Positions 28,800-56,374 of a stretch of DNA of 64,000 nucleotides are shown one piece after another. Under the pieces are notes generated by a model. That model was not told the origin of the DNA, did not search any database, and saw only the letters and a program-made list of their open reading frames with translations. A program made the position numbers and the translations under genes. The DNA lies in NCBI GenBank assembly GCA_034434875.1, contig DAOTYJ010000029.1, positions 3,581-67,580 of the forward strand, written 5' to 3'. The stretch comes from Dehalococcoidia bacterium (lineage in GTDB: Bacteria > Chloroflexota > Dehalococcoidia > JAUQQI01). Within the stretch, counting starts at the first letter, position 1. Each line of letters opens with the position of its first letter.

Positions 28800-28829
28800 T
28801 ATAATAAACCCGACTTGTTAGTCGGTTTT
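28800..28829 (+). promoter_or_regulatory. Candidate -10 box TATAAT followed immediately by a hairpin CCGACTtgttAGTCGG and TTTT in the SBP leader
   Basis: Seen directly, 14 nt upstream of the GGAGG ribosome-binding site and the ATG at 28843. Confidence 0.3.
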
Positions 28830-28842
28830 CGGAGGTTAGGCC

Positions 28843-30460: not shown

Positions 30461-30478
30461 ACTACTGGAGGCAAGGTT

Positions 30479-32166: not shown

Positions 32167-32760
32167 TCGGGTTTCAGGTCGATAGTGCTGGCCAGGAGCT
32201 CCACCAGCCGGCCGTAGCTTTCCTCCAGGGAAGCCGGCTCGCCGGTTGAGACCCAGCGCAGGAGAAGCTGGTAAAGGGCCCCGAACCAGGCGACACTTAT
32301 CAGGTCGGTATCCACCGGCCGGACCCGGCCCTGCCGGATGGCGGCCTCAAGCTGCTCCCTGATAAAGCGGATAAAAAGCTCGTAGATTTCCCGGAGCCGC
32401 GCCTGGAAGGCCGGTCCGGCCCCAAAGCCCTCCACGAGGAAGAGCCGGGCCAGGGGCCGGTGGGAGGTTATCGTCTGGACGAAGACTGCCAGGCCCCGCT
32501 CCAGCTTGGCGATGGGGTCGTCGACGTCCCGGATAGCCCCCTCAATCTTCGAAAGGAGAAGGCGGGCGGCGTAATCGAGGAGGGCCGAAAAGAGTTCGCC
32601 CTTGCTGGGGAAGTGGAAATAGAGGCCGCCCTTGGAGGTGCTGGCCGCCCGGGCCACGTCGTCGACGGTGGTGCCGTGGTAGCCGTTCTCGGCGAAGAGC
32701 CGGAGGGCGGCCTCGAGGATCTCCCGGTCGCGGACGACCCAGCGGGCCTGTCTGGCGCGG
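32163..32760 (-). CDS. TetR family transcriptional regulator. The upstream extension of the 6-frame ORF overlaps arsR and is unlikely to be real
   Basis: HTH LRLFAENGYHGTTVDDVARAASTSKGGLYFHFPSKGELF. Confidence 0.75.
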
Positions 32761-32763
32761 GGG

Positions 32764-33123
32764 CTACGCACGGGTGCAGGTAAGGACCCATTCGGCGTTG
32801 CGGGCCAAAGAATCCTGGGCCAGGTCGAGAATCCGCTCGACGTTAGGGTCGGCGATCCGGTAGTAAATCCGCTGGCCCTGGCGGCGGGTAGCCACAAAGC
32901 CGCACCAGCGCAGGCAGGCCAGGTGGTTGGAGATCCGGGGCTGTTTCATCCCGAGGGTCTCGCACAGTTCCTCTACGCTCCGCTCGCCCCCGCGCAGGAC
33001 CTCGAGGATGGCGAGGCGGACCGGGTCGGCCAGGCCCCGGAACCACTTGGCCAGGAGTTCCAGGCGGCTGAACTCATCGGTGTCGGACTCCCCGGTCGGG
33101 ACGGTCTTAACCTTTTCGGCCAT
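32764..33123 (-). CDS. ArsR/SmtB family metalloregulator
   Basis: HTH …VEELCETLGMKQPRISNHLACLRWCGFVATRRQGQRIYYRI…. Confidence 0.8.
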   Translation of the reverse strand: MAEKVKTVPTGESDTDEFSRLELLAKWFRGLADPVRLAILEVLRGGERSVEELCETLGMKQPRISNHLACLRWCGFVATRRQGQRIYYRIADPNVERILDLAQDSLARNAEWVLTCTRA

Positions 33124-33139
33124 GGCCTTGCCTTTCGGA

Positions 33140-33157
33140 CTGGTCTTATCAGACCAG
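33140..33157. promoter_or_regulatory. 7-4-7 inverted repeat CTGGTCTtatcAGACCAG immediately upstream of arsR
   Basis: Seen directly, 17 nt upstream of the arsR start codon. Confidence 0.35.
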
Positions 33158-33336
33158 ATTATATCACGATACTGTAATCACGGCCGGGGCTATTAGCATG
33201 CCCGGGGCCCGCCAGCCCCCATGTAAGGGCCGGATTTTTGTGGAAAAGTTCCCTAAAAATCACCCACTCCCGGTAAAATTTTGCTATATTGGTGGTGCGA
33301 TACTAACACCCGATGGGTGGTTGGGAGGTAGGATGT

Positions 33337-33495
33337 ATGTCGGTTGGTCTGATTCTCCTCATTTTGCTTCTCCTATTGCTGGTAGGCGCCCTGCCCACAT
33401 GGGGCTACAGCCGCAACTGGGGATATTTTCCGAGCGGGATTGTCGGCCTGTTGCTGGTTTTGGTTCTCGTGTTGGTCCTTCTGGGCCGCTTTTAA
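33337..33495 (+). CDS. DUF3309-like small membrane protein (52 aa)
   Basis: MSVGLILLILLLLLLVGALPTWGYSRNWGYFPSGIVGLLLVLVLVLVLLGRF; ribosome-binding site GGGAGG 7 nt upstream. Confidence 0.5.
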   Translation: MSVGLILLILLLLLLVGALPTWGYSRNWGYFPSGIVGLLLVLVLVLVLLGRF

Positions 33496-33877
33496 AAAAT
33501 TTGGGTGGATAGGGGGGTAGAACTTTGGCCCACGGTCACGAACCCCCGGGCATTCCGGCGGTGAAGGCCCCGGTTTTGGGGTTGGGTTAATTGCCGGGCT
33601 ATTGGTGGTGGCCATCATCGTTATCGTTGCGGTCTGGCTGCTTCTGGGCGGAAGCGTTCCCCGGGCGCCGGAAGCGCCCCGGGCCAGCCTGGGGCCGGTC
33701 AGCAGGCGACGCCGCAGGCGCCGCAGCTGCCCGGCGTTCAGGTGACCCCGCAGGCGCCGACGGCTCCGACGCCTAGCGGGACCCCTGGGCGGTGAGGGTG
33801 TCCTGGGTGGGGGTCGGCAAAGACCCCGTCCCCCTCAGGGACCGGATAACCGCAGTGAAAACCCAAAATGAAAGGGG

Positions 33878-34222
33878 GTGTACGGTTTGGCTATCCCGGT
33901 CATATTGTTCATTGTTGGCGTCCTGCTGGCCCTCTGGTTTTTGCTCGTGCTGGCCGGTTCGTTTATCGACCTGCTCATCTGGGTGGTGGTCGGCCTTATC
34001 GCCGGCTGGATTGCCAGCATGATCATGCGGACGGAGCAGGGGATAATCGGCGACATCCTGGTCGGGCTGGCAGGGGCCCTCATCGGGGGCGCCCTTTACA
34101 GCCTGGTGACCGGCCAGAGCACCGGCGGACCCCTGAGCCTGACCAACCTGGTTATGGCCGTCATCGGGGCCGTTATCCTGCTGGCCGTCCTTAAGGCCAT
34201 CCGGGGCTGTCAAATCGCTTAA
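33878..34222 (+). CDS. GlsB/YeaQ/YmgE (transglycosylase-associated) stress membrane protein. The true start may be TTG at ~33887
   Basis: GWIASMIMRTEQGIIGDILVGLAGALIGGAL signature. Confidence 0.7.
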   Translation: MYGLAIPVILFIVGVLLALWFLLVLAGSFIDLLIWVVVGLIAGWIASMIMRTEQGIIGDILVGLAGALIGGALYSLVTGQSTGGPLSLTNLVMAVIGAVILLAVLKAIRGCQIA

Positions 34223-34262
34223 CAAGGCCAGGCCCCGTTTTGGGCCGGGGAGCGGGCCCGCC

Positions 34263-34305
34263 GGACGGTGCGGTGCAAGACCGCCCTTCGGCGGGCCCGT
34301 TGCCG
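34263..34305 (+). terminator. GC-rich nested hairpins after GlsB, including a cUUCGg tetraloop hairpin CCGCCcttcGGCGG
   Basis: Seen directly; the T-tract is weak, so function is uncertain. Confidence 0.3.
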
Positions 34306-34339
34306 ACTATAATCAGGCGTTTGATACCCGAGGGCTGAC

Positions 34340-34737
34340 ATGAGTGTCGTCGACCCATATCAAATCAAGGTCCGTTATGGGGAGATTCTAGTAGAGCAGA
34401 CCGAATGCGTGGCCGAAGGGGACCGGCTTCGACTCAAGACTCCTTTGCTGTTGCCCGATGGGCGCAATATTCAAGTTTACATCCGGACCGGCCCCAACTG
34501 GACGGTAGTAGTTTCAGACGGGGGGGTGCTACCGAACAACTTACGGTGTTTTCCAGTTTTGAGGACGAGCTACGAGCTCGGCATGCTAAACTCGTCGAGC
34601 TTGCCCACCAATTCGGGATTGATTACTCGGGTGGTGAGCTGAGGTTTATGTCCAACGATTTGGGTGAAGCCTTAAGACGCATTTCGACCCTGGCCAGGGC
34701 CGTACTTGGCGTTATGTGTATGTTGGTGGGGAATTAA
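34340..34737 (+). pseudogene. Hypothetical ~150-aa protein in a low-GC patch, split by a frameshift in a G7 run (34520-34526)
   Basis: Frames 34340-34642 and 34405-34737 join at GACGGGGGGGTG to give …NWTVVVSDGG/GATEQLTVFSSFEDELRARHAKLVELAHQF…. Own promoter-like TATAAT at ~34297. Confidence 0.45.
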
Positions 34738-34740
34738 GGC

Positions 34741-36044
34741 TTGGCTAGATTTGTCTTCAAAGAAGTCGTCAGGTCGGGAAAAGAGGTCCGAGCCAGAACT
34801 TTTATGTTGCCCTTCTCCGAACTTATTGGGCATCGGTTAGAGGCCGACGGTCGGTTCGAATTTAGGGTCGGGGACTTGGCCGTCGATCTTAAGACGCCCG
34901 AAGGACTCGTTACGGCCGGGCTCGTCCGGCCGAAAACGGGCGGGCCCAAAGCCTGTCCCTGGGACCGGGTCCGGGTGGACCGGTCGGCCCGACGCCTTCG
35001 GTTGGAGGGGGACGGCTTTTCCGGGCTTCCGGAGGAACAGGTGGGTCAACTGGTGCTGTTAAAAAGGGACATCCTGGATGCCTTGGTGATCGACCTGGCC
35101 AACCGCCGGGCGGCCCGGGCCAACGACCTCTGGCTGGGGGCGTCCGGTGGGAGGTGGCGGCTGGTTGGGGTTGAGTTGGGGCCGCGGGCGGTCCTCCGGC
35201 GGGTCAGTCGCGGCCTGCTGGGCCGGGGCCCTGGGTCGGGTTTGGTCCCCTGGGAGGATATTGAGCTTTTACGGGGGGACCCGGCGGCGGCCCGGGCCGG
35301 CCGCGACTACCACCGGCAACTGGCCAGGCTGAGTCCGGGGGAAATAGCCCGATTGCTTGTTCTGCTGCCTTACATCCATGCCGCCGAGGCGTTGACCCTG
35401 CTGCCGGAGTCGAAGGCGGCCGACGTATTTGAGGCCATGGGCCTTCAGCGGCAAGTTCAGGTGGCCGATGAGCTCGGCCGGGAAACTTTGGGGAGGCTGT
35501 TGAGCCTGATGGCCCCGAACCTGGCGGCCGCCTTTTTGCGACGGCTCGACCTGGCGCAGGCCCGGGAACTGCTGGAGGCCCTGCCCAAGGAGCGGGCGGT
35601 GAGGGTCGAACAGCTTCTCCGGTACCCGGCGGATACTGCCGGGGGCTAATGACCAACGAATTCGTTACCGTAGAAGCCGGCCTTACCGCCGGCGAGGCCC
35701 TGGCCGCCTTGCGGGATGCCCTGCGGGAGCCGGACTTTGTCTATTTTATCTACGCGGTTGCCGCCAAAAACGACCGACGGCTGGCAGGTGTCGTGAGCCT
35801 GCGGGACCTGGTGGTGGCCGATGCCGACCGTCCCCTCTCGGACCTTATGACCCGGGATGTGGAGGTTATTCGGGTCGGCGAGCGGGCCGACCGGGCCGCC
35901 TGGCGGGTCGTGGAAACCCAGCTGGCAGCCCTGCCGGTGGTTGACGAGGCGGGTCTGATTGTGGGGGTCTTGACGGTGGATGCGGCCGTGGCCGCAATTG
36001 CCCCGCCGGTCTGGCGGGCGCAGGCACCCCGGCTTTTTGCTTGA
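34741..36044 (+). pseudogene. Cytoplasmic PRC-barrel(x2) - MgtE_N - CBS-pair protein, with a -1 frameshift at 35645-35653
   Basis: MgtE_N helices …LSPGEIARLLVLLPYIHAAEALTLLPESKAADVFEAMG… ending YPADTAGG, then stop, then LMTNEFVTV (the canonical MgtE YPEDTAGGLMT junction lacks one T in GGCTAATGACC). CBS pair in 35649-36044. Confidence 0.65.
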
Positions 36045-36048
36045 GGGG

Positions 36049-37348
36049 GGAGGCTTTTTGGGGGGTTCGGCTGAACATTCGGGGACGCAGCGTGGTCCTG
36101 TACGGCCTGAGGCGGCCCCTGCCCGGTTTTCTTGGCTGGGTCCTAGTCTTAGGCCCGGGCATCATCGCCGCCTGCGCCGGGAACGATGCCGGTGGCATCG
36201 CCACCTACAGCTAGGTGGGTGCCCGGTTCGGCTACGACTTTCTTTGGCTGCTGGTGCCTATAACCGCGGCCCTGATGGTTATTCAAGAAACTTGCGCCCG
36301 GATTGGGGCCGCGACCGGGCGGGGTCTGCTGGACCTGGTCCGGGAGGTCTTCGGCCTGGGCTGGTCGCTGTTTGCGGTGGGGCTTGTGGCCATTGCCAAC
36401 GCCGGGCTTGCGGTGAGCGAGTTTTTGGGCATCGGGGCGGCGGCCGACCTTCTGGGCATCAGCCCCTACCTGGCGGCGCCCCTGACCGCCGGCCTTATCT
36501 GGTACCTGGTCGTCCACGGAAGCTACCGGTCGGTGGAGAAGATTTTCATTGGGATGGCCCTCGTTTTCCTGGCCTATCCGGCCTCGGCGGTTATAGCCGG
36601 GCCCGACTGGTCGGAAGTTGTCCGGGGGCTGGTGCCCCGGGTTCGGTTGGAGCCGGAGTTTCTGGCGATGGCCGTTGCCCTACTGGGGACAACCATTACC
36701 CCGTACATGCAGGTTTTCCAGCAGGGTTCGGTGGTTGATAAGGGTGTGAGCCGGGCCCGCTCCGGTCCGTAGCGGGCGGATGCTTACCTGGGGTCGGCGA
36801 TTTCAAACCTGGTTTCGGTATTTATTATCGTTGCCACCGCCGCAACCCTCTATGGGTCGGGAACCGGGGTGGAAAGCGCCGCGGATGCGGCCCGGGCCCT
36901 GCGGCCGGTGGCGGGGGATGCGGCTGAGGTCCTGTTCGCCGTCGGACTGTTTGGGGCGTCGGCCCTGGCCGCGGGAGTTCTGCCCCTGGCCACCGCCTAC
37001 GCCGTAAGCGAAACTTTCGGCCTGCCGAAAGGGGTGGACCTGGATTTCCGGCGGGCACCGGTCTTTCTCTGGACCTTCACCGGCCTCATCGGTTTCGCGG
37101 GGGGTGTGCCCTTAATCCCCGGTCTGCCCGTTATCGACCTGCTGGTCAGGTTGCAGGTGCTCAACGGCCTGCTTTTGCCGGCTGTGTTATTCTTCGTCCT
37201 CCGCTTGGCCAACAACCCGAAACTGATGGGCAGGCTTAAAAATAAGCGGACCGAGAACGCCGTGGGCTGGGGAAGCCTCGGGCTTATATCCCTGGCGGCG
37301 GGAAGCTACCTGGCCGCCCAGCTTGGGTCTATCCTCGGGCCCGGCTAG
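36049..37348 (+). pseudogene. NRAMP-family-like divalent cation transporter, immediately downstream of the MgtE_N-CBS gene, with two in-frame TAG codons
   Basis: …LGPGIIAACAGNDAGGIATYS*VGARFGYDFLWLL… parallels Nramp TM1 DPGNFATNISAGAQYGY, with the TAG at the conserved Gln position. Second TAG at ~36770 within …SRARSGP*RADAYLGSAISNLVSVFII…. The C-terminal half 36869-37348 is in the same frame. Confidence 0.65.
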
Positions 37349-37418
37349 CCAAATTTTTTGAATAGAACAATTGTGCAGTTTTTAAAGGTTTGGGGGAACA
37401 CTATTAACCGGCAAGGTT

Positions 37419-37751
37419 ATGAGTGGAGGTTCGGTTAGTGAATTGGGATACGGTGAGCATTTCCGAGCGGAACCTGGGCCGGGGCAGTCGGATGCTGCGG
37501 GTTCGGGGGGCGGGCTTCAGCCTGGCGCTGGTGATCCCGGCGCCGCCCCGGCCGCCCAGACCCCGGCCGAATTTTATTCCGCCCGCCTTGGCCCGGCTGA
37601 GCGGCCCCTCTTCGAGCACGCCTTAAAGCTTGAGGGCCTGGACCAGGAGATCGCCCTGCTCCGCCTCCGGATTCGGCAGGACCTGGACGACCCCAAGGGC
37701 CTGATGCGGGGGATCGACCTGCTGGTTAAGGCCCTGCGGACCCGCTACTGA
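37419..37751 (+). CDS. Hypothetical 110-aa protein upstream of the terminase (small-terminase role not demonstrable)
   Basis: ORF with a Gly/Pro-rich N-terminus and helical C-terminus …LEGLDQEIALLRLRIRQDLDDPKGLMRGIDLLVKALRTRY. Confidence 0.3.
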   Translation: MSGGSVSELGYGEHFRAEPGPGQSDAAGSGGGLQPGAGDPGAAPAAQTPAEFYSARLGPAERPLFEHALKLEGLDQEIALLRLRIRQDLDDPKGLMRGIDLLVKALRTRY

Positions 37752-37896
37752 CTTGGGCCCGACCAGTCGGAGCGGATTTACCGGGCCATCGTGGAGGTGC
37801 TGGAGGGCCTTGGGGAGGGGCTGGACGGCCCCGCCGGCGCGCCGGAGTGATGGTGAGCGGGGCGGTGTTTCGCCTCGGGCGGGGCGGAGGCGGGCG

Positions 37897-38136
37897 GTGA
37901 GCGGCCTGCGGGAAGCCGTCGCCCAGCTTACCCGGCGGCTCGTCCGCCCGACTCCGCCCCGCCCCCCGCTGCCGGAGGTTCAGCCGTGCTGCGCCTATGA
38001 GCTGGTCACCCGGCAGATGCTGGAGGATATGCGGGCCGAGCTGGCCGAGCTCAAGGCCCGGGTAAACGGGTTGCTTTTCATGCTGGCCGGGGCGATCCTG
38101 CTGGACGTTATCCTGCGGCTGGCTCGGCCGGGATGA
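37897..38136 (+). CDS. Small coiled-coil protein with a C-terminal TM anchor; its stop overlaps the TerL start (ATGATG)
   Basis: VSGLREAVAQLTRRL…CCAYELVTRQMLEDMRAELAELKARVNGLLFMLAGAILLDVILRLARPG; start codon uncertain. Confidence 0.35.
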   Translation: MSGLREAVAQLTRRLVRPTPPRPPLPEVQPCCAYELVTRQMLEDMRAELAELKARVNGLLFMLAGAILLDVILRLARPG

Positions 38137-39509
38137 TGCCGCCCCTGCGGCCCTACCAGCTGGAGCCCTTCCGGGCCATCTGGGGGTCGGTTCGGGCGGG
38201 GGCCGGCTTAAGCTTTTCGGTGATGATGGCCCGGCAGGCGGGCAAGAATGAGCTTTCGGCTCAGCTGGAGGTTCGGCTGCTTTTAAGGTTTGCCCCCTTT
38301 GGGGGCGACGGGATAAAGGCCAGCCCCACCTTTCGGCCCCAAACCTTAAATTCCCTGGACCGGCTTAAGGCTAGGCTGGATGATGCCGGCCTGGGGGGCC
38401 TCTGGCGGGCCGAGCGGGGCTACACCGTGCGCCTCGGCCGGGCCCGGATGGTCTTTCTTTCGGCCGAGCCCTCCGCCCGGGTGATGGGCCACACCGCCGG
38501 CCTCATCCTGGAGGTGGACGAAGCCCAGGACGTGCTTGCGGAGAAGTTTGACAAGGACTTCCGGCCGATGGGGGCGGCCGCCAACGCCACCACCGTCTAT
38601 TACGGCACCCCCTGGGACGGAAATTCCCTGCTGGAACAGGTCAAGGCCCGGCATCTGGAGCTGGAGGGCCGGGACGGGATTCGCCGCCACTTTGAGTACG
38701 ACTGGGAGACGGTGGCCCGCTACAATCCGGCCTCCGGCCGCTACGTGCGGGCCGAGCGGGCGCGCCTGGGCGAGGCCCATCCCCTCTTTCAGACCCAGTA
38801 TGCGCTCAGGCCGGTGGCCGCCCTCAGCCGGACCTTCGATGGGGCCGACCTGCGCCTCCTGGCCGGCGAGCACCCCCGGCTTCTGGGCCCGGCGGCCGGG
38901 GAGCAGTACGTTGTGGGGCTGGACCTGGCCGGCCAGGCCTGGGACGAGCTGCGGGGGCTGGGCGGCTGGGACCCAGCCGGACGCCGGGACTCGACGGTGG
39001 TTACGGTGGGCCGGGTGAGGACCGGCAATTTCGGCCCGGTCCTTGAAATCGTCCACCACGAGGTCTTTACCGGCCTGCGCCACGACATCCTGGTCCCCAG
39101 GCTGGTGGAGGTCATCCGCCGCTGGCGGCCGGAGGCCGTGGCCGCCGACGCCACCGGTCTGGGCCAGCCCATCGTCGGCCTGCTGGGGGCCGAATTCGGG
39201 CGGCGGGTCGTCTTGCCGGTGGTGTTCACGGCGGCCCGGAAAAGCGGCCTTGCGGCCGAGCTTATCGCGGCGGTGAAGGCCGGCCGGCTCAAGGTCTATG
39301 CGGACGCTTCGGCCGGGCGGGCCGAGTTCCTGCGCCAGTTCGGGCTGGCCCGGACGAGGGCCCGGCCGGGGGGCCACCTGGAGGTGGCGGTGGACCCGGC
39401 CGAAGGCCACGATGACTTTTTAATTTCGGCCGCCCTGGGCCTGGAGGCCGCCGGGCAGGTCCGGCCCCGGCGGGCCCGGGGCTGCCCGGCGGCGGGGGCC
39501 GGGCCGTGA
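38133..39509 (+). CDS. Phage terminase large subunit (TerL)
   Basis: N-terminal ATPase (P-loop-like ARQAGKN, Walker B LILEVDEAQDV) and C-terminal RNaseH-like nuclease (YVVGLDLAGQ…, …HDDFLISAALGL). Confidence 0.8.
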   Translation: MMPPLRPYQLEPFRAIWGSVRAGAGLSFSVMMARQAGKNELSAQLEVRLLLRFAPFGGDGIKASPTFRPQTLNSLDRLKARLDDAGLGGLWRAERGYTVRLGRARMVFLSAEPSARVMGHTAGLILEVDEAQDVLAEKFDKDFRPMGAAANATTVYYGTPWDGNSLLEQVKARHLELEGRDGIRRHFEYDWETVARYNPASGRYVRAERARLGEAHPLFQTQYALRPVAALSRTFDGADLRLLAGEHPRLLGPAAGEQYVVGLDLAGQAWDELRGLGGWDPAGRRDSTVVTVGRVRTGNFGPVLEIVHHEVFTGLRHDILVPRLVEVIRRWRPEAVAADATGLGQPIVGLLGAEFGRRVVLPVVFTAARKSGLAAELIAAVKAGRLKVYADASAGRAEFLRQFGLARTRARPGGHLEVAVDPAEGHDDFLISAALGLEAAGQVRPRRARGCPAAGAGP

Positions 39510-39521
39510 AGGAGGATTTCG

Positions 39522-40838
39522 ATGGCTGAGGACCTGCCCCGGCTGATCCGACGGCTGGACCTGGACCGGATGCGCCGCTACCAGGAGGCGCTGGGGCTTT
39601 ACGCCGGCACCCACTGGCCCGAGGGGCCCGGCCGCGGCCGCCGGCGGACCCTGACCGTGAACTACATCCGAACGGTGATTGATAAGGTTGCGACTTACTT
39701 AATGGCGGGGCGGGCGGTGGTAATTGAGCCGGCCGACCCGTCCGAGGCGGCCCTGGCCCGGGCCACCGAGGCCGCCCTGCGGGAGGTGGCCGAGCAGAAC
39801 GAGCTGGACTGGCTGGAGCTGGAGACCGAGGTCGATACGGCGGTGCTGGGCGACGGGGCTTATAAAGTCTGGTGGGACCCCGGGGCCGGGCAGGTTCGGG
39901 TTTCGGCCCCGGATGTCCAGGGCCTGTACGCCTGGCCGGACCCGGCCTCGCCCTTTGGGCCCCGGCGGGCCGTTCTGCGCCAGCTGCTGCCGGCCGCCGA
40001 GGTTGAGGCCCGGTTCGGGGTTGGGGCCGACCGGGAAGAGGTGGAGGTTATCGAGGACTGGACGGCCGGGCAGTTTCAGGTCTGGGTGGACGGCCGGCCC
40101 CGGCCGGCCCGGCCGAACCCTTACGGGTTTATTCCCGTTGTGGTCTTCCCCAACGTGCGCAGGCCCAAATCTTTCTGGGGCGAATCGGATGCGCTGGTCC
40201 TTAAGGAGGTCCAGCTGGAGCTTAACCGGGCCTTCACCCAGCTTTCCCGGATAATGGAGGTTTCGGGCAACCCCATTGCGGTCCTTTCGGGGGTTACCGA
40301 GGCCGAGGATATTGCCGTCCAGCCGGGGGCCGTCTGGACCCTGCCGGAGGATGCCAAGGCTTATCTGCTGGACCTGCTGGCCAACGGGGCGGCCCAGCTC
40401 CACCTGGAATATATCAATGCCCTCTACCGGATGCTTCACGACCAGGCCGAGGTTCCCCGGACGGCCTTTGGGGACAATCAGCGCAACCTTTCGGGGGTGG
40501 CGCTGGAGGTGGAGATGCCGCCCCTTTACCAGCGGGTTCAGCGCAAGCGGCTCATCCGGACGGCGGTTTACAAGCGGCGAAACGAGTTTATCCTGCGGCT
40601 TTTAGAGCAGTTCACCGGGCGGCGCTTTCTGCACCGGCAGCGGGTGGTGTGGGGGCAGGTGACGCCCCGGGACGAGTCCCGGCGGGTGGCCGATTTTGGG
40701 CTGCTGGTGGAGCGGGGCCTGCGGTCCCGGCGGGGGCTGATGGACGAGCTTGGGGTGGCCGACGCCGAGGCCGAATTCGGCCGCTGGCTCGAAGAGCAGA
40801 ACCGACTGGGGCCCGGTCGCGGCGAAGGTCAAGGTTAG
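39522..40838 (+). CDS. Phage portal protein
   Basis: ~440 aa, placed directly after TerL; N-terminal …RRYQEALGLYAGTHW…RTLTVNYIRTVIDKVATYL… pattern typical of portal proteins. Confidence 0.7.
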   Translation: MAEDLPRLIRRLDLDRMRRYQEALGLYAGTHWPEGPGRGRRRTLTVNYIRTVIDKVATYLMAGRAVVIEPADPSEAALARATEAALREVAEQNELDWLELETEVDTAVLGDGAYKVWWDPGAGQVRVSAPDVQGLYAWPDPASPFGPRRAVLRQLLPAAEVEARFGVGADREEVEVIEDWTAGQFQVWVDGRPRPARPNPYGFIPVVVFPNVRRPKSFWGESDALVLKEVQLELNRAFTQLSRIMEVSGNPIAVLSGVTEAEDIAVQPGAVWTLPEDAKAYLLDLLANGAAQLHLEYINALYRMLHDQAEVPRTAFGDNQRNLSGVALEVEMPPLYQRVQRKRLIRTAVYKRRNEFILRLLEQFTGRRFLHRQRVVWGQVTPRDESRRVADFGLLVERGLRSRRGLMDELGVADAEAEFGRWLEEQNRLGPGRGEGQG

Positions 40839-40878
40839 CAAGCCTTCGCCACATTCGGCAGAATATTCGCCTAACGGC

Positions 40879-40909
40879 TTGCCCCAGTCGCCAACCCCGG
40901 CCTACAATA
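40879..40909 (+). promoter_or_regulatory. Candidate sigma-70-like promoter TTGCCC-N19-TACAAT upstream of the BY-kinase gene, preceded by an AT-rich palindrome GGCAGAATATTCGCC
   Basis: Seen directly; the 19-nt spacer is long, hence low confidence. Confidence 0.3.
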
Positions 40910-40945
40910 TCGTGTCGGAGAGCAATCGGTTGGGAGGATGACCCC

Positions 40946-42493
40946 GTGGAAGGTGACGAGCTGGATCTGGGGCCGGTCCTTGATTCCCTCCGCCGTCGGC
41001 TCCTTATTTTGTTGCTTTTTGCCCTCGCCGGAGCCCTTTCCGCCCTGCTCCTCACCCGCTTCTTTATGCAACCCATATACCGGGCCTCCGCCCGCATCCT
41101 CGTCGAATCGGGACAGGCCCCGGCCTTGACGGCCGCCGGCGCCATACCCGTTGCCGCCGATACCTACGTGGAGCTGGTCCGGGGCGAGTGGCTCAAGCGT
41201 GAAGTCGCCCGCAGGCTTGACCTCCCCCTTTCGGGAAGCCTTCCCTTCGAACTTGCAGCCCGCTCCGTTCGGGGCACCCAGATGGTCGTCCTTGAGGCCG
41301 AAAGTCCCGACCCGAAGCTGGCGTCCGACGCCGCCCGGGCCGTCCTGTCGGTCCTTCAGGAGCTGGTCCGCCAGCGCCAGGCGGAGCGATTTGCCGCCGC
41401 CGAGCAGCGGCTTGAGGGCCAGATCGGGGAGCTTACCGCCGAGCTTAACCGGGTTCGGGGGGCCCTCGCCCAGGCGAGGTCGGAGGCAGAGCGGGCCGCC
41501 CTTGCGGACCAGGCCAGCCGACTTCAGGCGGCCTTAGGCCAGCTTCAGGCCAGCTACGGGAACCTGAAGCTGGCCCAGGCTCAGGCGGGCGACCTGATCA
41601 TCGTCCTGGAGCCCCCCGCTACGCCCGAGCGGCCCGTGCGCCCCGCCCCCCTTTTAAACGCCGCGGTCGGCGGCTCCCTTGGTCTGTTGCTGGGGATAGC
41701 TTATGCGGCGGCCGCGGCGGTTTTGGACCGCCGGTTCCGGGGGCTTAAAGAGGTTGAGGAGATGTTGCGGCTGCCGGTTCTCGCCGCCCTCTACCGGGAG
41801 AATCCAGGTTCTGGGGGGGGTTATAATGCCGAGGCGTTTCGCATTCTGCGGACAAACATTCGGTTCTCGGCGGCGGACCGGCCCCTTAAGGTCGTGGGAG
41901 TGGGGGCGGTGGAGCCGGAGGCGGGCAAGACCACGGTGGCGGTGGGCCTGGCCCGGGCGCTGGCAGCTCTGGGCCAGCGGATTCTGCTGGCGGACGCCGA
42001 CCTGCGGCGGCCGTCTCTGCACGACCTTTTTGGGCTTGGCCGTTCGCCGGGCCTATCGGACTGGCTGGTAAACCCGGCCCTTGAGGCCGAAAGGGTTCTG
42101 CGCCCGGTGGGGGAGGGGCTGTGGGTGCTTCCGGCGGGAACCCCGGCCCCGAATCCGGCGGACCTGCTGGCATCCCGGCGTTTTGGGGAGCTCATCCGGC
42201 TTCTGGCCGGGGAGTTCGACCTGGTTGTACTGGACAGCGCCCCGGCGGTGGCGGGGGCCGACCTGCTGAACGTGGCCGCGGCGGCCGACGGGTTTATCCT
42301 GGTCGTAAGCCTGGGTCTGACGGAGCGGGAGGAGGCCGGGCGACTGACGGCTCAGCTTAAAGGCGAAGGTGTCAGGATTCTGGGGGTGGTAGTTAACCGG
42401 GTCGAGCCGAAGGGGACCCGTTATTATTACTACCATGAGGGTGGCCGGAGGCTTAGGCTCCGGCTCCGCTGGCCCCTGGCCCGCCGGGGATAG
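40946..42493 (+). CDS. Polysaccharide co-polymerase / BY-kinase (Wzz chain-length domain plus CpsD/CapB tyrosine autokinase), GTG start with a GGGAGGA ribosome-binding site
   Basis: N-terminal TM plus coiled-coil Wzz region, Walker A GVGAVEPEAGKTTVAVGLARALA, DxD LLADADLRRP, C-terminal Tyr cluster RYYYYHEGG. Confidence 0.8.
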   Translation: MEGDELDLGPVLDSLRRRLLILLLFALAGALSALLLTRFFMQPIYRASARILVESGQAPALTAAGAIPVAADTYVELVRGEWLKREVARRLDLPLSGSLPFELAARSVRGTQMVVLEAESPDPKLASDAARAVLSVLQELVRQRQAERFAAAEQRLEGQIGELTAELNRVRGALAQARSEAERAALADQASRLQAALGQLQASYGNLKLAQAQAGDLIIVLEPPATPERPVRPAPLLNAAVGGSLGLLLGIAYAAAAAVLDRRFRGLKEVEEMLRLPVLAALYRENPGSGGGYNAEAFRILRTNIRFSAADRPLKVVGVGAVEPEAGKTTVAVGLARALAALGQRILLADADLRRPSLHDLFGLGRSPGLSDWLVNPALEAERVLRPVGEGLWVLPAGTPAPNPADLLASRRFGELIRLLAGEFDLVVLDSAPAVAGADLLNVAAAADGFILVVSLGLTEREEAGRLTAQLKGEGVRILGVVVNRVEPKGTRYYYYHEGGRRLRLRLRWPLARRG

Positions 42494-43394
42494 CCCGGCG
42501 TCCGGGCCCGCCGGTGGGATTCGGGTTGAGGCGGAGGTTAAGGCGGTTCTTAATCGGGCCGGGCCGGTGGTATTTTTAGAATCAAACCTGCTGGCCACCG
42601 GCCTTCCGCCCGAAGACGGACGCCGGGCCCTGGCCGCCATGGCCGAGGCGGTCCGGTCGGCCGGGGCGGTGCCGGCCGTGGTCGGGGTGGTCCGGGGCGA
42701 ACCCAGGGCGGGCCTGGGGGAGGCCGAAATCGCCGAGATAATCCGCTCGGGGCAGAAGCTGGGCCCCGCCGACCTGGGACCGGCCCTGGCCGCCGGCCTC
42801 ACCGGGGGGACCACCGCCGGGCTCACGCTGCTTTTAGCCGCCCACCTTACCCCCTGGCCCATCCTGGCCACCGGCGGAATCGGGGGCGTGGGGGCCGACG
42901 ACCCCGCCGACGTCTCCGCCGACCTGTGGGCCCTCGGCCGCTACCCGGGCCTGGTGGTCTGCAGCGGCCCGAAACTGCCGGCCGACGCCCGGGCGACCCT
43001 GGAGTGGCTGGAGACCCGGGGCGTCCCCGTCGTCGGCTACCGGACCGGGCGGCTTCCCAGGTTTTTCGTCGCCGACGGGCCGCCCCTCCGCCACCGGGTC
43101 GAGACGGCCGAGGCGGCGGTGGCGGCCTGGGTTGCCCACCGCCGGTTCGGGGGCGCAGGCCTGCTTCTGGCCGTCCCGCCCCCCAGCCCGGCCCCGCCCG
43201 AAATCGAGGGCTGGACGGCCGCCGCCCTTGAGGCCGCCCGGTGGGCGGCAAAAACCGGGTCCGATTTAACCCCCCTCTTCTTGCAGAATCTGGCCCGCCT
43301 TTCCGGGGGCCTCACCGTCGGGGTGAATATCGGGCTCCTGCGGGAGAATGCGGCGGTGGCCGCCCGGTGCGCCCAGGCCCTGAGCCGGGGATAG
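42435..43394 (+). CDS. psuG: Pseudouridine-5-phosphate glycosidase. The start is probably ~42510 (the ORF's first ~25 codons overlap the BY-kinase gene)
   Basis: …ATGGIGGVGADDPADVSADLWALGRYPGLVVCSGPKLPADARATLEWLETRGVPVVGYRT…. Confidence 0.7.
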   Translation: MRVAGGLGSGSAGPWPAGDSPASGPAGGIRVEAEVKAVLNRAGPVVFLESNLLATGLPPEDGRRALAAMAEAVRSAGAVPAVVGVVRGEPRAGLGEAEIAEIIRSGQKLGPADLGPALAAGLTGGTTAGLTLLLAAHLTPWPILATGGIGGVGADDPADVSADLWALGRYPGLVVCSGPKLPADARATLEWLETRGVPVVGYRTGRLPRFFVADGPPLRHRVETAEAAVAAWVAHRRFGGAGLLLAVPPPSPAPPEIEGWTAAALEAARWAAKTGSDLTPLFLQNLARLSGGLTVGVNIGLLRENAAVAARCAQALSRG

Positions 43395-43450
43395 ACCCGG
43401 TAGCTCGGCCGTCGGCCCCGGCAGGTCGGTGTGCTATAATCCCCTCTGGT

Positions 43451-44800
43451 ATGGGCGGCCGCCTACCGCTCCGGCTGGCACTGTTGCGGCTGGTCCTCAT
43501 CGTGCTGACCGCCCTCTGGACGGCCGGGGCAACGGTATTTGCGCTGATCTTCCTCTGGCGGGGAAGCACTTACCTGCAGCTCCTGGTGGTGGCCGTTTCG
43601 CCGGTGCCGGTGACGCCCCTTGTGGGCCGCCTGGCCGATGGCCCGGGCTGGGCCGGAACCGACCGGGTAAACATCCTGCTCCTCGGGGTGGACAGCCGGC
43701 CGGACGAGGCCGTTGACCTGGCCCGGACCGACACGATGATCCTGGCCACCATCGACCCGGTCAACCGGCGGGCGGGGATGCTGAGCATCCCCCGGGACCT
43801 CTGGGTGCCCATTCCGGTGGAGCCGGGCAAGACCGTGGTCCAGGACCGGATAAACACCGCCCACCGCTACGGGGCGTATTATAGATACCCCGGCGGGGGC
43901 CCGGCCCTGGCCAAGAAGACGGTGGAGTACAACCTCGGGGTGAAAGTGGGTTACTACGTGCGGGTGGACTTTAAAGGCTTCACCGGCCTGGTGGACGCCC
44001 TGGGCGGGGTGGTGGTGGACAACCCCTACCCCCTCCGGGACGACGAGTACCCCACCGAATACTATGGGGTCCAGCGTATCTTCTTTTTTGGGGGCCTTCA
44101 GCCCATGGACGGCCAGGCCGCCCTCAAGTTCGCCCGCTCCCGCCACCAGGACACCGACTTCGGCCGGATCCGCCGCCAGCAGCTGGTGCTCCTGGCTATG
44201 CGCCAGCGGGCCCTGGAGCTCAACCTGCTGCCGAGGCTGCCCCAGCTCATCCTCGAGTACGGAAACCTGGTGAGCACCGACCTTAAGCCCGTGGAAATCG
44301 TCGCCCTGGCCCGGGTTGCGGCCGGGATCGACCCGGGCTCGGTAACCGTCCGGGCCATCGAAGGCCCGGCCGTCCGGGATGTCACCGGGGAGGACGGGGC
44401 CTATCTGCTTCTGCCGGTTAAGCCCGAAATTAACCGCATCGTCCGGGAGCTTTTTGAAACCCCGACACCCCGGGAGGTTCCCGAGGAGTCCCGGGTCGAG
44501 GTGCTTAACGGCACCCGGGTTCCGGGCCTGGCCCGGCGGACGGCCGATTACCTGCGGGCGCAGGGCTTTAAGAATGTCACCTTCGGCAACGCCGCCGTTG
44601 CGGCGGACCAGGCGCACACCGTGATTTACGACCTGACGGGGAAGCCCGAAACCGTAAAGCGGCTCCAGCAGCTCCTGCGCCTTCCGGCCGACAGCGTCCA
44701 GGCCCTGCCCGCCGACGGGGGTGCGGCCGGCCGGAATGGCGAACAACCCGCCGACGTCCGCATCGTCATCGGGCGGGACCTCACCTTGCCATCCGAATAG
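43451..44800 (+). CDS. LCP (LytR-CpsA-Psr) family glycopolymer transferase
   Basis: N-terminal TM, NILLLGVDSRPDEAVDLARTDTMILATIDP…LSIPRDLWVPIP, C-terminal LytR_C-like domain. Confidence 0.8.
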   Translation: MGGRLPLRLALLRLVLIVLTALWTAGATVFALIFLWRGSTYLQLLVVAVSPVPVTPLVGRLADGPGWAGTDRVNILLLGVDSRPDEAVDLARTDTMILATIDPVNRRAGMLSIPRDLWVPIPVEPGKTVVQDRINTAHRYGAYYRYPGGGPALAKKTVEYNLGVKVGYYVRVDFKGFTGLVDALGGVVVDNPYPLRDDEYPTEYYGVQRIFFFGGLQPMDGQAALKFARSRHQDTDFGRIRRQQLVLLAMRQRALELNLLPRLPQLILEYGNLVSTDLKPVEIVALARVAAGIDPGSVTVRAIEGPAVRDVTGEDGAYLLLPVKPEINRIVRELFETPTPREVPEESRVEVLNGTRVPGLARRTADYLRAQGFKNVTFGNAAVAADQAHTVIYDLTGKPETVKRLQQLLRLPADSVQALPADGGAAGRNGEQPADVRIVIGRDLTLPSE

Positions 44801-44824
44801 GCCAGTTAAGAGGGGTTGAAAGCG

Positions 44825-45568
44825 ATGCGTCGGTTTCCCAAGGCATCGATAATCATCCGCGCCAAGAACGAGGAGCGGGATATCGGCCTGACCCTTTCGA
44901 TGGTTTTCCGCCAGCGGATGCGGGACTTTGAAGTGATAATCGTGGATTCGGGGTCGACCGACCGGACTTTAGAGGTCGCCCGGCGGTTTCCGGTGAAAAT
45001 CATCGAAATCCCGCCGGAAAGGTTCACTTACGGCCGGGCCCTCAACATCGGCATCGCCGCCTCCCGGGGCGAGTACCTGGTCTGCCTGAGCGCCCACGCC
45101 ATCCCCGCCGACGAGGAGTGGCTGGGCAACCTCCTTTCCGGCTTCGACGACCCGGAGGTTGCCGGGGTCTACGGCATGCAGATCCCCCGGCCCAACTGCA
45201 ATTTCCTCGAGGTGGTCGGCCTGGCCCTGGAGGGGACGAACAGCCCGTATCCCCGCCTTCAGCGGCGGGGCCGCTCCAACTTCTCCAACGCCAACAGCGC
45301 CATCCGAAGGACCCTCTGGGTTCGGGTGCCCTTCGACGAGACCCTTTCGGGGGCCGAGGATTTCGCCTGGGCCAAGCAGGTGCAGGAGCTGGGCTACCTG
45401 ATAAAATACGAGCCTACCGCCCGGGTCTATCACTCCCACGGGGGGCCGGTTTTCAAGATCATGCGCCGGGCCGTCCGGGACTTTACCACCCGGCTGGCCG
45501 TCACCGTCGGGCTTCTGGCGACCAAGCCGCCGGTGCTCTACTACCCGCCCCGGCCGGAGGCCGAGTAG
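44825..45568 (+). CDS. GT2 family glycosyltransferase
   Basis: SIIIRAKNEERDIGLTLSMVFRQ…EVIIVDSGSTDRT… with DxD-type motifs. Confidence 0.8.
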   Translation: MRRFPKASIIIRAKNEERDIGLTLSMVFRQRMRDFEVIIVDSGSTDRTLEVARRFPVKIIEIPPERFTYGRALNIGIAASRGEYLVCLSAHAIPADEEWLGNLLSGFDDPEVAGVYGMQIPRPNCNFLEVVGLALEGTNSPYPRLQRRGRSNFSNANSAIRRTLWVRVPFDETLSGAEDFAWAKQVQELGYLIKYEPTARVYHSHGGPVFKIMRRAVRDFTTRLAVTVGLLATKPPVLYYPPRPEAE

Positions 45569-45574
45569 GCCGGG

Positions 45575-45784
45575 CTACCGGTGGGTGTTGTTGCCGGCCG
45601 TACTCGTAGGCTCGGGAACTTCCGAAACGACCTTGAAGGGCGGGTCTGGGATCATGGCCATTACCCAGAGGCACCAGGCGCAGAACTGGCGGCCGTCGTT
45701 GAGGCGGAAGAGTCGGCGCGCCCGGCCGCAGGCGTGGCAGACCTCGCTGAACCTACCCGTAGACTCCGCTCCTTTCAAGGTCAC
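45575..45784 (-). CDS. Small zinc-ribbon protein (CxxC-N15-CxxC), coupled to the upstream small ORF by a 4-nt overlap
   Basis: …EVCHACGRARRLFRLNDGRQFCAWC…. Confidence 0.4.
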   Translation of the reverse strand: MTLKGAESTGRFSEVCHACGRARRLFRLNDGRQFCAWCLWVMAMIPDPPFKVVSEVPEPTSTAGNNTHR

Positions 45785-46134
45785 CCTCCCGGTGCGAGAA
45801 ACAGGCCCGGGTGTGTCTCCCGACAGGCCTTAAGGTCATAATAACGGATTTTCGACCGGCGGTTCCGCCGGGGGCCGGTAAGCCGGACCCGGGCCAGAAC
45901 CGGGACCGCCCCCAGCCCCTCGGCCGCCGCAATCAGCTCCGCCCGCTCGGCCTCCGAAGGCCAGGGCGGGTCGCCCACGGCCGAAACGGCCAGCCATACC
46001 AGCCAGATTGTACCATTCGGGAAGCGGGCTTTCAAACCCGCCGCCGTCTCCTCGACCTGGACGCCGTAGCCGGCCAGGTCCCGCCAGACCCGGCGCCGGC
46101 CGAGGCGGTCAAGAAGGGACCGCCAGGGTGACAT
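45781..46134 (-). CDS. Hypothetical ~118-aa protein (alpha/beta composition)
   Basis: Internal Met start MSPWRSLLDRLG…GYGVQVEETAAGLKARFPNGTIWLVWLAVSAVGDPPWPSEAERAELIAAAEGLGAVPVLARVRLTGP. Confidence 0.4.
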   Translation of the reverse strand: MSPWRSLLDRLGRRRVWRDLAGYGVQVEETAAGLKARFPNGTIWLVWLAVSAVGDPPWPSEAERAELIAAAEGLGAVPVLARVRLTGPRRNRRSKIRYYDLKACRETHPGLFLAPGG

Positions 46135-46172
46135 CGGCCCGCTCCGGCTCGGCTCAGCTTTCGGCTTAAGAC

Positions 46173-48097: not shown

Positions 48098-48098
48098 G

Positions 48099-48770: not shown

Positions 48771-48842
48771 CTGCCGGCCTCCGCACAAATTTTACACGCC
48801 GGGGGTAGGGCCGGTGGGGCCGGCAAAGCCGCCCGGCGGCCA

Positions 48843-49583: not shown

Positions 49584-49584
49584 T

Positions 49585-56362: not shown

Positions 56363-56374
56363 GGCGAACCCCCT

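Follow-up and report, generated by a model that had tools for sequence, protein, structure and literature searches.

Four consecutive genes occupy positions 37419-40838 of the window, by which we mean the whole 64-kb stretch of DNA that was analysed. They encode a small, predicted helical protein (orfA), a tail-anchored membrane protein (orfB), a large terminase (TerL) and a portal protein. The genes and the region in front of them are as follows.

37349..37405, + strand: promoter/operator cassette, read from the sequence as CCAAATTTTTT - N4 - AGAACAATTGTGC - AGTTTTTAA - N9 - GAACACTATT
37364-37376, + strand: LexA-box-like palindrome AGAACAATTGTGC, inside the cassette
37419..37850, + strand: orfA, candidate small terminase, with an in-frame TGA at 37749-37751 (family HMM, E=3.9e-20)
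37897..38136, + strand: orfB, 79 aa, coiled coil plus C-terminal transmembrane helix (family HMM, E=1.2e-24)
38133..39509, + strand: TerL (ATPase plus RNase H-like nuclease), 458 aa (Pfam, PHROG, tblastn and fold matches)
39522..40838, + strand: portal (SPP1 gp6-like), 438 aa (Pfam and PHROG profile matches)

Host genes flank the block for 37 kb upstream and 23 kb downstream, including those for topoisomerase I, GGT and the pyrimidine operon. On the 3' side of the portal, Pfam-type annotation gives a Wzz/tyrosine autokinase, Indigoidine_A (psuG), LCP and GT2, and a promoter scan finds a promoter-like site at 40879-40908. This agrees with an earlier note on this DNA, which had listed BY-kinase, psuG, LCP and GT2 genes with their own promoter. 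The EPS neighbourhood is incidental; in a relative with 85% TerL identity (L169) the pyr operon lies directly 3' of the portal. The 5' neighbours are metal-transporter pseudogenes, namely pieces of MgtE and an Nramp gene split into 36215-36772 and 36869-37348. Decay upstream of an intact TerL and portal was seen correctly in the earlier note, but the decaying genes do not belong to a phage or island, and orfA also carries a TGA.

Searches with family HMMs found no homologues of capsid, scaffold, adaptor or HTH genes in the 64-kb window, and in Pfam scans of about 40 larger ORFs of the window the only phage or integrase families were those of TerL and portal. No tail, lysis or integrase genes were found in the 64 kb, which does not have the composition of an intact prophage, and there are no tRNA genes in it. 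Direct repeats considered as att sites flanking the module were rejected as short, high-GC chance matches. Replication genes and an integrase are absent from the window and from four related loci (L085, L084, L166 and L167), which therefore do not resemble phage satellites (PICI/cf-PICI). The four block proteins match no defence model in PADLOC-DB 2.0 (the sole match, of the portal to RT_UG4 at 15 bits, is spurious), and a defence-system identity was dropped for that reason.

The identity of TerL rests on several kinds of matches. Pfam Terminase_6C is matched with E=2.4e-5 (24.8 bits against a cutoff of 22.6), PHROG TerL matches are weak, and tblastn gives 32% identity to phage terminases (E=8e-37). 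The AlphaFold model (pLDDT 82.9) matches the large terminases of HK97, T4, D6E and Sf6 (best E=1.2e-15), their ATPase domains included, and the nuclease domain matches PDB profiles of the G20c and P74-26 nuclease domains, with a Foldseek TM-score of about 0.77 to G20c (normalised to target length). The motifs RQ(G/A)GKNE, LLEVDE and YGT are invariant in the family, and the Walker A, Walker B and coupling motifs of a terminase ATPase are present, the invariance of Walker A being partly a product of the search pattern used for retrieval. Residues K38, N39, D129, E130, D264, D339 and H426-D427-D428 are unchanged across 162 family members; D264, D339 and D427/D428 are the predicted acidic triad of an RNase H-like nuclease. 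None of the 162 retrieved TerLs is truncated or has lost a catalytic residue, in a sample that took the best-scoring 80 loci per scan and so favours intact copies. In Walker A an Asn replaces the usual Ser or Thr, family-wide and in mobile relatives as well. The portal matches SPP1_portal (PF05133) with E=4e-13 and 49.4 bits (cutoff 25.5), its residues 16-428 aligning with positions 11-412 of the 416 of the profile, and phrog_64 with E=1.6e-21; a match to SU10_portal is faint. It starts 12 nt after the TerL stop, and the full-length profile match and the neighbouring TerL together identify it. In the nearest cultured phages TerL is 32% and portal 25% identical. GC3 is host-like in TerL (0.87) and 0.83 in portal, and 3529 portal homologues are found, mostly in Chloroflexota.

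The two small ORFs 5' of TerL, one membrane-anchored and overlapping the TerL start, were already noticed in the earlier note. In the window orfA is ended after 110 aa by the TGA at 37749-37751, whereas relatives read through to 143-149 aa, and L004 has CGG at that position. The 32 codons past the TGA, up to the stop at 37848-37850, still resemble the C-terminal helix of the family. orfA precedes TerL in 138 of the 162 loci. Its homologues number at least 5125, and no Pfam domain occurs in any of them; searches of Pfam, PHROGs and NCBIfam gave no matches. Its AlphaFold model (25 homologues) is all helical, with a pLDDT of 56 that is too uncertain for a fold search. Its position, its size and the basic N-terminus of most homologues (lost in the window copy) make it a candidate small terminase. 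The listed start of orfB is 37753, but 79-aa orthologues in L168 and L169 place it at the GTG at 37897. The protein has a hydrophobic helix at its C-terminus. The stop codon of orfB and the start codon of TerL run into each other in the ATGA at 38133-38136, so that the two genes are translationally coupled. In the TerL tree, orfB is restricted to the integrase-less part that contains it; the two exceptions, L036 and L163, are too short for an integrase check. At many loci a protein with three transmembrane helices (3-TM) comes first in the operon.

TerLs of the window family, at about 50% identity or more, occur in at least 546 species-level genomes, nearly all of Chloroflexota and known almost entirely from MAGs; the TerL, portal and orfA families have thousands of members each. 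A fuller cluster has the order orfA-TerL-HTH-portal-scaffold-SU10-like capsid-adaptor-660-aa protein, often interrupted by host genes. The scaffold-like protein is a coiled coil, the protein of about 660 aa is nozzle- or fibre-like, and capsid and adaptor match SU10_MCP and SU10_adaptor weakly (E=1e-13 at best). Two small membrane proteins are added in the sub-clade of the window, one of them being orfB, and an SLT transglycosylase (lysozyme) and a holin-like protein in its lineage. Most retrieved genome copies have no integrase and lie amid housekeeping genes: of the genome loci that have a neighbouring portal and sufficient flanking sequence, 19 are without an integrase and two carry one. 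For example, an 11-kb integrase-less cluster lies between HIT/DUF8575 and MoaC in L085, and L084 and L003 hold further such clusters. In many genomes the gene set is divided into two or three units with housekeeping genes between them. On one 345-kb contig a 17-kb stretch carrying genes for IleRS, YidC, RNase P and ribosomal proteins separates HTH-portal-capsid from orfA-TerL, and in L170 portal and TerL lie on opposite strands with 9 kb between them. TerL stands alone in some genomes, and the solitary TerLs have a portal elsewhere on the contig.

Scanning metagenomes with the promoter sequence of the window lineage revealed a second unit in high-GC relatives, with genes for scaffold, capsid, adaptor, SLT lysozyme, a 657-aa protein and a holin-like protein. 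One copy of it comes from the same metagenome as an orfA-TerL unit. The earlier note had described an orphan TerL and portal with no capsid, tail or integrase, and had proposed to look for a capsid elsewhere. The description holds within the 64 kb, but "orphan" is misleading, as the capsid absent from the window is present in relatives as a separate scaffold-capsid-adaptor-lysis locus with the same cassette. We infer that the genome of the window also keeps such a unit.

The cassette in front of orfA is conserved in five relatives (L004, L168, L172, L180 and L183), and the same cassette of about 60 nt stands 5' of the scaffold-capsid unit in L186, L189 and L199. Its GAAC-N4-GT(T/G)C palindrome sits between the -35 and an overlapping extended -10. 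The transcription units of many integrase-less loci have in common the operator motif TAGAAC-N4-GTNCTA, which is about 90-fold enriched upstream of cluster operons (0.86 per kb against 0.0095 per kb elsewhere). It is found at 31 of the 55 first genes in integrase-less loci, as against 2 of the 39 in integrase-bearing ones, and units within one genome have common, lineage-specific operator variants. In Firmicutes and Actinobacteria the LexA box reads GAAC-N4-GTTC, and variants of it have been reported from Chloroflexi (PMC4951493). At many loci the operator only approximates the LexA consensus; the lexA gene of L049 has a canonical box, AGAACATTAGTTCA, in its own leader. Within the window the operator alone has two matches, a count reached in 14 of 100 shuffles and not significant, so the weight given to it comes from the comparative data and not from the window count. 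A simple sigma-70 consensus scan found no canonical promoter 5' of orfA, where the -10 region is non-canonical, and a scan of IMG/VR with the promoter pattern gave three low-GC chance matches only. With LexA as the most likely repressor, the LexA-box-like putative operator before many units would place them under host control, which is expected of a gene transfer agent (GTA). The candidate operator could instead bind the cluster's own HTH protein.

The gene set appears to be vertically inherited in Chloroflexota, mainly in Dehalococcoidia. In syntenic groups the identities of TerL and portal are in line with those of HisRS, RelA and RarA, and the distances between TerLs correlate with those between host genes (Mantel r=0.74 and 0.68, p about 5e-4). 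Synteny persists down to a TerL identity of 54%. Cluster genes have a dS close to that of the host genes beside them, and all of them show dN/dS of roughly 0.05-0.5. Against L004, with which the window region is collinear, dN/dS is 0.13 for TerL and 0.12 for portal at dS of about 0.4, as in host genes; it is 0.33 for orfA and 0.20 for orfB. Evidence for vertical inheritance and purifying selection, both features of a GTA, comes from conserved flanks, matched identities, Mantel correlations and dS. Two proposed position markers were rejected. The synteny of the window lineage with L170/L001 (SBP_bac_5 upstream, phosphoribosyltransferase downstream) involved SBPs that are 29% identical paralogues and transferases that are not alignable, and the HIT gene by "Z-type" loci is a downstream paralogue, 25-31% identical. 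A TerL phylogeny, suggested in the earlier note, was made as a simple NJ tree, in which integrase-bearing relatives are interleaved with integrase-less ones. This interleaving means that the family may have undergone recombination with active phages or repeated fixation.

These results bear on several other explanations of the block. That a normal prophage was cut by the window or the assembly, its capsid and tail genes being contiguous in the real genome, is suggested by two phage hallmark genes with nothing further, but is extremely improbable given the host genes on both sides, the collinearity with L004, the pyr operon after the portal in L169, and a window devoid of integrase, tRNA gene or convincing att-like repeat. 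The earlier note had named such truncation as what would undo its reading, and had also offered a prophage edge left behind after loss of the rest; the latter finds no support, as three relatives (L004, L168 and L169) have the same four-gene module between housekeeping genes in a rearranged order. The block might also be a functionless remnant of an old prophage with surviving open reading frames. There are only four genes in 64 kb, orfA has a nonsense codon and the adjoining transporter genes are decaying; yet TerL and portal evolve at dN/dS of 0.12-0.13, as host genes do, four relatives with identities as low as 85% have kept the module intact despite flank rearrangement, the catalytic residues are invariant, and the cassette is conserved and common to the capsid unit, all of which makes a remnant improbable.

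Exaptation of the terminase-portal motor for a role outside virions, such as membrane-associated DNA translocation via orfB, would account for the coupling of orfB to TerL, for the near confinement of orfB to its integrase-less part of the tree, for the 3-TM protein that opens the operon at many loci and for TerL standing alone in some genomes. It is very improbable, as capsid, scaffold and adaptor are under purifying selection in the same clade and behind the same promoter, and solitary TerLs do not lack a portal on their contig. Less easily set aside, but still unlikely, is a grounded (defective) prophage regulon kept through interaction with related mobile phages, as a satellite-like parasite exploiting or diverting their particles, or as a superinfection-interference module, and not for host-serving transfer. 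Integrase-bearing prophages of about 18 kb that integrate at tRNA genes do exist in Dehalococcoidia (L014, L019 and L053), as does a related 18.4-kb contig with a 62-bp terminal repeat (L156, IMGVR_UViG_2721755314_000003); mobile TerLs are interleaved in the tree, and the operator occurs in a few integrase-bearing relatives (L012/L014, L088 and L089). The integrase-less clusters, however, hold their own full head set, their dS parity with host flanks and the extent of their synteny indicate ancient residence, and neither a PADLOC match nor a satellite-type replication or regulatory module is seen.

Structural and packaging genes with no integrase, replication or lysogeny modules, as in the window, L085, L084 and L166 plus L167, are one mark of a GTA, and the block is probably the packaging unit of a GTA-like, phage-derived particle system that is dispersed, putatively host-regulated and integrase-less in most retrieved genomes. 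In this respect the domesticated GTA-like packaging module of the earlier note has fared well, and on a far wider scale than the note had in mind: the family spans Chloroflexota, most retrieved genome copies have no integrase, and its genes diverge in step with those of the host under purifying selection. In the mechanism proposed, a common repressor, with LexA the likeliest candidate, would hold the units silent, and derepression would lead to their co-expression. Portal, scaffold and capsid protein would then form procapsids, TerL with orfA would cut DNA and pump it through the portal, adaptor and 660-aa protein would seal the particle, and the holin-like and SLT proteins would free it. We infer that the overall product would be a GTA-like viriform carrying packaged DNA. 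A wider proposal is more tentative, namely that a clade-wide domesticated podovirus-like system in Chloroflexota, above all Dehalococcoidia, might be an independently arisen GTA whose head, packaging and lysis units are scattered over the chromosome and tied into an SOS-type (LexA-box) regulon by copies of one promoter cassette.

GTAs and domesticated phage particles have been described from few bacterial and archaeal lineages, and none in Chloroflexota was found in the literature searched. Aquifers, sediments and the deep ocean harbour abundant Dehalococcoidia, which are hard to culture. If the proposal is true, this would be the first GTA-like viriform in Chloroflexota and would give organohalide-respiring, subsurface and marine Dehalococcoidia a route of gene exchange, for example of reductive dehalogenases. 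A conserved, host-paced, mostly integrase-less, dispersed and apparently co-regulated set leads to the testable hypothesis of DNA-damage-inducible particles, and the promoter cassette offers a simple genomic marker for locating all units in any genome. A phage module, it would seem, can be dismantled and scattered over the chromosome with its coherence kept. For annotation, a lone terminase plus portal is not necessarily a remnant.

The closest known relatives are the prophages and viral contigs of about 18 kb (L156, L014, L019 and L073), whose TerLs are 45-51% identical to that of the window. They share with the window family the TerL, portal, orfA, scaffold, capsid, adaptor and 660-aa families in the same order, but have a tyrosine integrase by a tRNA gene, an HNH nuclease, a methyltransferase-like gene and many small regulatory ORFs. 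In them the structural genes are tightly packed, the portal overlapping TerL, and the operator, orfB and 3-TM protein are mostly missing; none of their mobility genes occurs in the window module. The IME1 elements of Dehalococcoides (bioRxiv 10.64898/2026.09.15.751708) were considered and found unrelated, because they are without tailed-phage hallmark genes. SU10-like (Kuravirus-type) podophages resemble the family in capsid, adaptor and, faintly, portal, but differ in genome size and context, and no SU10-like tail fibres or nozzle were recognised in the family. cf-PICIs have their own small terminase, TerL, portal, capsid and head-tail connectors and no tail; they are mobile, with integrase, att sites, replication module and regulators, and rely on helper tails. 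The window-family clusters are like them in being small elements with their own head and packaging genes and no tail, but have none of these further features and are host-syntenic and split by housekeeping genes. In some temperate phages, such as Bacillus GIL01 and CTXphi, host LexA directly represses the lytic genes, and here too a LexA-box-like palindrome lies over the structural-gene promoter; the candidate box of the window family, however, is repeated before several dispersed units of an immobile cluster. In the RcGTA-type GTAs of Alphaproteobacteria, head and packaging genes of phage origin occupy more than one locus. Integrase and replication genes are missing, and the set is host-regulated and has descended vertically through a large clade under purifying selection. 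The window family is like them in its gene content, descent, selection and multiple loci. To our knowledge no multi-unit layout in which every unit has its own copy of one promoter cassette has been reported from RcGTA. Known from its genes alone, the window family differs further in an apparently independent origin in another phylum and in being podovirus-like, with SU10-type capsid and adaptor and no tail tube or tape measure.

Four genes, all in the same orientation, make up the module at window 37419-40838:

orfA, 37419-37751: small helical protein
orfB, true start GTG at 37897: 79 aa, with a hydrophobic helix at the C-terminus and a stop that overlaps the TerL ATG
TerL, 38133-39509: marginal Pfam match to Terminase_6C (24.8 bits) and weak PHROG matches
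portal, 39522-40838: SPP1_portal match across the whole length

The earlier note had placed two small ORFs before TerL, one membrane-anchored and running into its start, and both were confirmed. TerL aligns with the terminase of Bacillus phage vB_BboS-125 (32%, E=8e-37) and also with that of BCD7, and its AlphaFold model (pLDDT 82.9) resembles the full-length large terminases of HK97, T4, D6E and Sf6. The Walker A (RQAGKNE), Walker B (LEVDE) and YGT motifs and the acidic residues of the nuclease are kept. At residue 39 (window 38247-38249) all 162 family members, mobile relatives included, have GKN, not GK(S/T), an invariance partly by construction, since the Walker A stretch was part of the locus-retrieval patterns. 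Window GC is high (about 0.70), and TerL and portal have a host-like GC3. In orfA, an in-frame TGA (window 37749-37751) stands where the related locus L004 has CGG; orfA of relatives is 143-149 aa long, and the 32 codons beyond the TGA still match the C-terminal helix of the family. The TGA arose either by recent nonsense mutation or through an error in sequencing. The basic N-terminus of orfA, present in most homologues, is lost in the window lineage, and the two features together hint at local erosion of a packaging-initiation component, or at sequencing error.

The pair had also been described as lacking capsid, tail and integrase. Family HMMs of the other cluster proteins match nothing across the 64-kb window, Pfam scans of about 40 of its larger ORFs gave, besides the module, host functions only, and the 64 kb contain no tRNA gene; the observation therefore stands. 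The host functions upstream are helicase, GGT, topoisomerase I, Nramp, ABC transporter, ADH, SBP, enoyl-CoA hydratase, UbiA, TetR and ArsR; downstream comes the BY-kinase/psuG/LCP/GT2 block (the EPS block) and then a pyrimidine operon on the minus strand. An SBP_bac_5 ORF of 260 aa (window 29678-30460) spans profile positions 196-364 only and is probably frameshifted or truncated, the L169 orthologue being 543 aa long. Two adjoining minus-strand ORFs of 851 and 414 aa (window 2894-5449 and 5458-6702) match no Pfam family and resemble host genes in codon usage.

The four-gene module is stable and its surroundings are variable, because the same module occurs in the retrieved loci L004, L168 and L169 with different flanks. 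L004 (ERB_22_2; 91%) is collinear with window 28787-33127 and 37364-49532, and L168 (TerL 93%) has an orfA of 149 aa, an orfB of 79 aa, TerL and portal. In L169 (TerL 85%) the order is SBP-ECH-UbiA-TetR-ArsR-orfA-orfB-TerL-portal, and the portal leads directly, on the same strand, into pyrR-pyrB-pyrC-carA-carB-pyrK-pyrD, with no EPS block (L169 12918-21374 versus window 40871-56914). In the window and L004 the EPS block follows the portal, and the window pyr operon beyond it is inverted; block and inverted operon appear to have been gained by these two. The EPS module that the earlier note saw adjoining the portal is indeed there, but its nearness is incidental, given L169. Left of the module lies a lower-GC stretch of 4.2 kb (window 33128-37348), with decayed MgtE and Nramp, that neither L004 nor L169 has. 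Its ORFs include a GlsB-like one, separate ones for pieces of MgtE_N and CBS, and the two parts of a broken Nramp gene (36215-36772 and 36869-37348), of which the window has an intact copy at 17104-18441. The right-hand junction of the stretch is common to the 93% relatives L172 and L183.

Homologues of TerL and portal, at 46-60% identity, numbered in the thousands in protein searches; nearly all came from Chloroflexota/Dehalococcoidia MAGs, and many lay on long chromosomal contigs (up to 2.9 Mb). Scanning a single genome for each species gave at least 546 carrier genomes, and 808 clusters reach E<=1e-30 in a profile search over 1.84 billion representatives. Cultured phages are much more distant (32% identity for TerL, 25% for portal). 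By these comparisons the pair is part of a family that is very large, tight and specific to Chloroflexota.

ORF clustering of 162 loci yielded a recurrent gene order: (3-TM protein), orfA, (orfB), TerL, (a small Sigma70_r4/HTH_23 protein, HTH), portal, coiled-coil scaffold-like protein, capsid, small proteins, SU10_adaptor-like protein, a nozzle- or fibre-like protein of ~660 aa, and a 70-aa protein. The capsid protein matches phrog_212 (E=8.5e-68) and Phage_capsid/SU10_MCP. The set occurs in three states. Compact elements, mostly IMG/VR contigs, have a tyrosine integrase about 2.3 kb upstream, beside tRNA-Arg or tRNA-Thr, an HNH nuclease and many small ORFs, and look like real small temperate phages. 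L156 (IMGVR_UViG_2721755314_000003, 1-18400) has a 62-bp terminal direct repeat and on that basis is probably a complete circular element of ~18.3 kb, unusually small for a tailed temperate phage; its genes are integrase, HNH, methyltransferase-like, orfA, TerL, portal, scaffold, capsid, adaptor, and those for proteins of 652 and 446 aa. In the second state integrase-less clusters lie amid housekeeping genes, as in L085 (11 kb, flanked by HIT/DUF8575 and MoaC). In the third the cluster is split, with host genes separating TerL from HTH-portal, or portal from scaffold. On a 345-kb contig HTH-portal-capsid is 17 kb from orfA-TerL, with IleRS, YidC, RNase P, L34, S18, SSB and S6 in between, and at another split locus the portal is 9 kb from TerL on the opposite strand. 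For 61 species-level loci the downstream flank was long enough to place the portal: it is beside TerL in 27, 0.7-10 kb off in 6 and missing from the flank in 28; an integrase lies upstream in 2 of the 27 portal-adjacent loci, none is found within at least 3 kb in 19, and the upstream sequence is too short in 6. The window clusters with L004 and L006 in a neighbour-joining tree of TerL, within its integrase-less, orfB-bearing part. One Dehalococcoidia group (L028, L040, L046, L052, L061, L072, L074, L081, L082) has, directly after TerL (about 1.5-10 kb downstream of it), a CetZ/tubulin-like gene and opposite-strand genes for large anchored surface proteins; in L061, L072, L074 and L081 HTH-portal follows 2.7-11 kb beyond these genes. 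CetZ is extremely conserved (L046 versus L082: 99% identity, dN/dS 0.008).

In L085 a 55-nt repeat stands before the first operon and before the scaffold operon. Its general form, G(T/C)GACAAAA - N8-9 - TTGACA - N5 - TAGAAC-N4-GT(G/T/A)CTA, is found in many integrase-less loci before the first gene, HTH-portal and scaffold-capsid, the right half of the palindrome overlapping the extended -10. The operator motif is about 90-fold denser in the stretches upstream of cluster operons than in the rest of 2.07 Mb, and is present at the first gene in 31/55 integrase-less versus 2/39 integrase-bearing loci. Lineage-specific variants are common to the units of one genome (for example, GTAC in L166 and L167). 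GAAC-N4-GTTC is the LexA box of Firmicutes and Actinobacteria, and variants are reported for Chloroflexi (PMC4951493). The cluster palindrome corresponds to this box. The sole lexA homologue among the retrieved loci (L049 14323-14967) lies directly after the scaffold-like gene, and its leader contains AGAACATTAGTTCA, with a canonical GAACATTAGTTC box between promoter and ribosome-binding site. Either LexA or the HTH protein is a candidate binder of the operator. In the window the operator AGAACAATTGTGC (37364-37376) is 42 nt upstream of orfA and is kept in relatives, and the cassette of this lineage reads CCAAATTTTT-N4-TAGAAC-N4-GTGCAGTTWTTAA. A second conserved box, GAACACTAT (window 37396-37405), about 20 nt downstream of the operator, is present in both unit types of the lineage (also L172, L180, L186, L189, L199); other lineages have the G(T/C)GACAAAA box upstream of -35.

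Since the units of one genome share a promoter, JGI metagenome contigs were scanned with that of the window lineage (pattern AGAACNNNNGTGCAGTTWTTAA). Of 35 matches, 28 were discarded as chance (low GC, different spacers); the 7 with spacer ATTT and GC 0.60-0.69 all belong to the element. Three of the 7 are orfA-orfB-TerL(-portal) units, including L180, whose TerL and portal are 91% identical to those of the window. Three others, L186, L189 and L199, are a second unit type behind the same ~60-nt cassette. L186, covered in full, encodes a scaffold-like protein, the capsid protein (HMM E=2e-137), a protein of 74 aa, SU10_adaptor, an SLT transglycosylase, proteins of 657 and 71 aa, and a 3-TM holin-like protein; the L189 and L199 contigs cover the scaffold-capsid part only. 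One metagenome, Ga0101941, yields one copy of each unit type. With two unit types behind one cassette, and both in one metagenome, the lineage has its genes for capsid and lysis at a separate site, apparently under the same control. The window pair reads as one unit of a dispersed regulon, the capsid unit being seen in contigs of relatives and predicted for the window genome. The name "orphan" fits the pair within the window but not its lineage, whose members hold a capsid unit elsewhere behind the same cassette.

In syntenic groups TerL and portal show the same identities as the HisRS, RelA and RarA genes next to them, and the distances between TerLs are correlated with the distances between host genes nearby (Mantel r=0.74 and 0.68, p about 5e-4). 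In 11 integrase-less loci, with TerL identity down to about 54% (L037 versus L085), a HIT gene is found 1.5-5.6 kb upstream. In pairs with unsaturated dS, cluster-gene dS equals that of flanking host genes and dN/dS is roughly 0.05-0.5, mostly 0.1-0.3; between the window and L004 it is 0.13 for TerL and 0.12 for portal (dS about 0.4), and 0.03-0.27 for host genes. Among the best 80 loci per scan, none of the 162 TerLs is truncated and their catalytic residues do not vary, which partly reflects retrieval, the Walker A motif having belonged to the search pattern. These data are evidence for a long vertical residence of the cluster under selection.

The model best supported is a putative particle system, domesticated, host-regulated and GTA-like, whose genes are dispersed but co-regulated. 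It would descend from, or share ancestry with, the small temperate podovirus-like phages found in these hosts. The main rival of this model is a grounded prophage retained for interaction with still-mobile relatives, and the mobile relatives are indeed interleaved with integrase-less loci in the neighbour-joining tree. The earlier note had left the choice between a domesticated, possibly GTA-like remnant and the edge of a prophage whose remainder was deleted; the GTA-like alternative is favoured, and both a truncated prophage and a functionless remnant are poorly compatible with the data.

Text searches of the literature covered here brought up no GTA, viriform or conserved capsid cluster described for Dehalococcoidia/Chloroflexota, and the recently described IME1 elements proved unrelated to the gene cluster. 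A domesticated phage particle is a known kind of thing; what appear to be new are the origin, the phylum, and the use of one promoter cassette for each dispersed unit.
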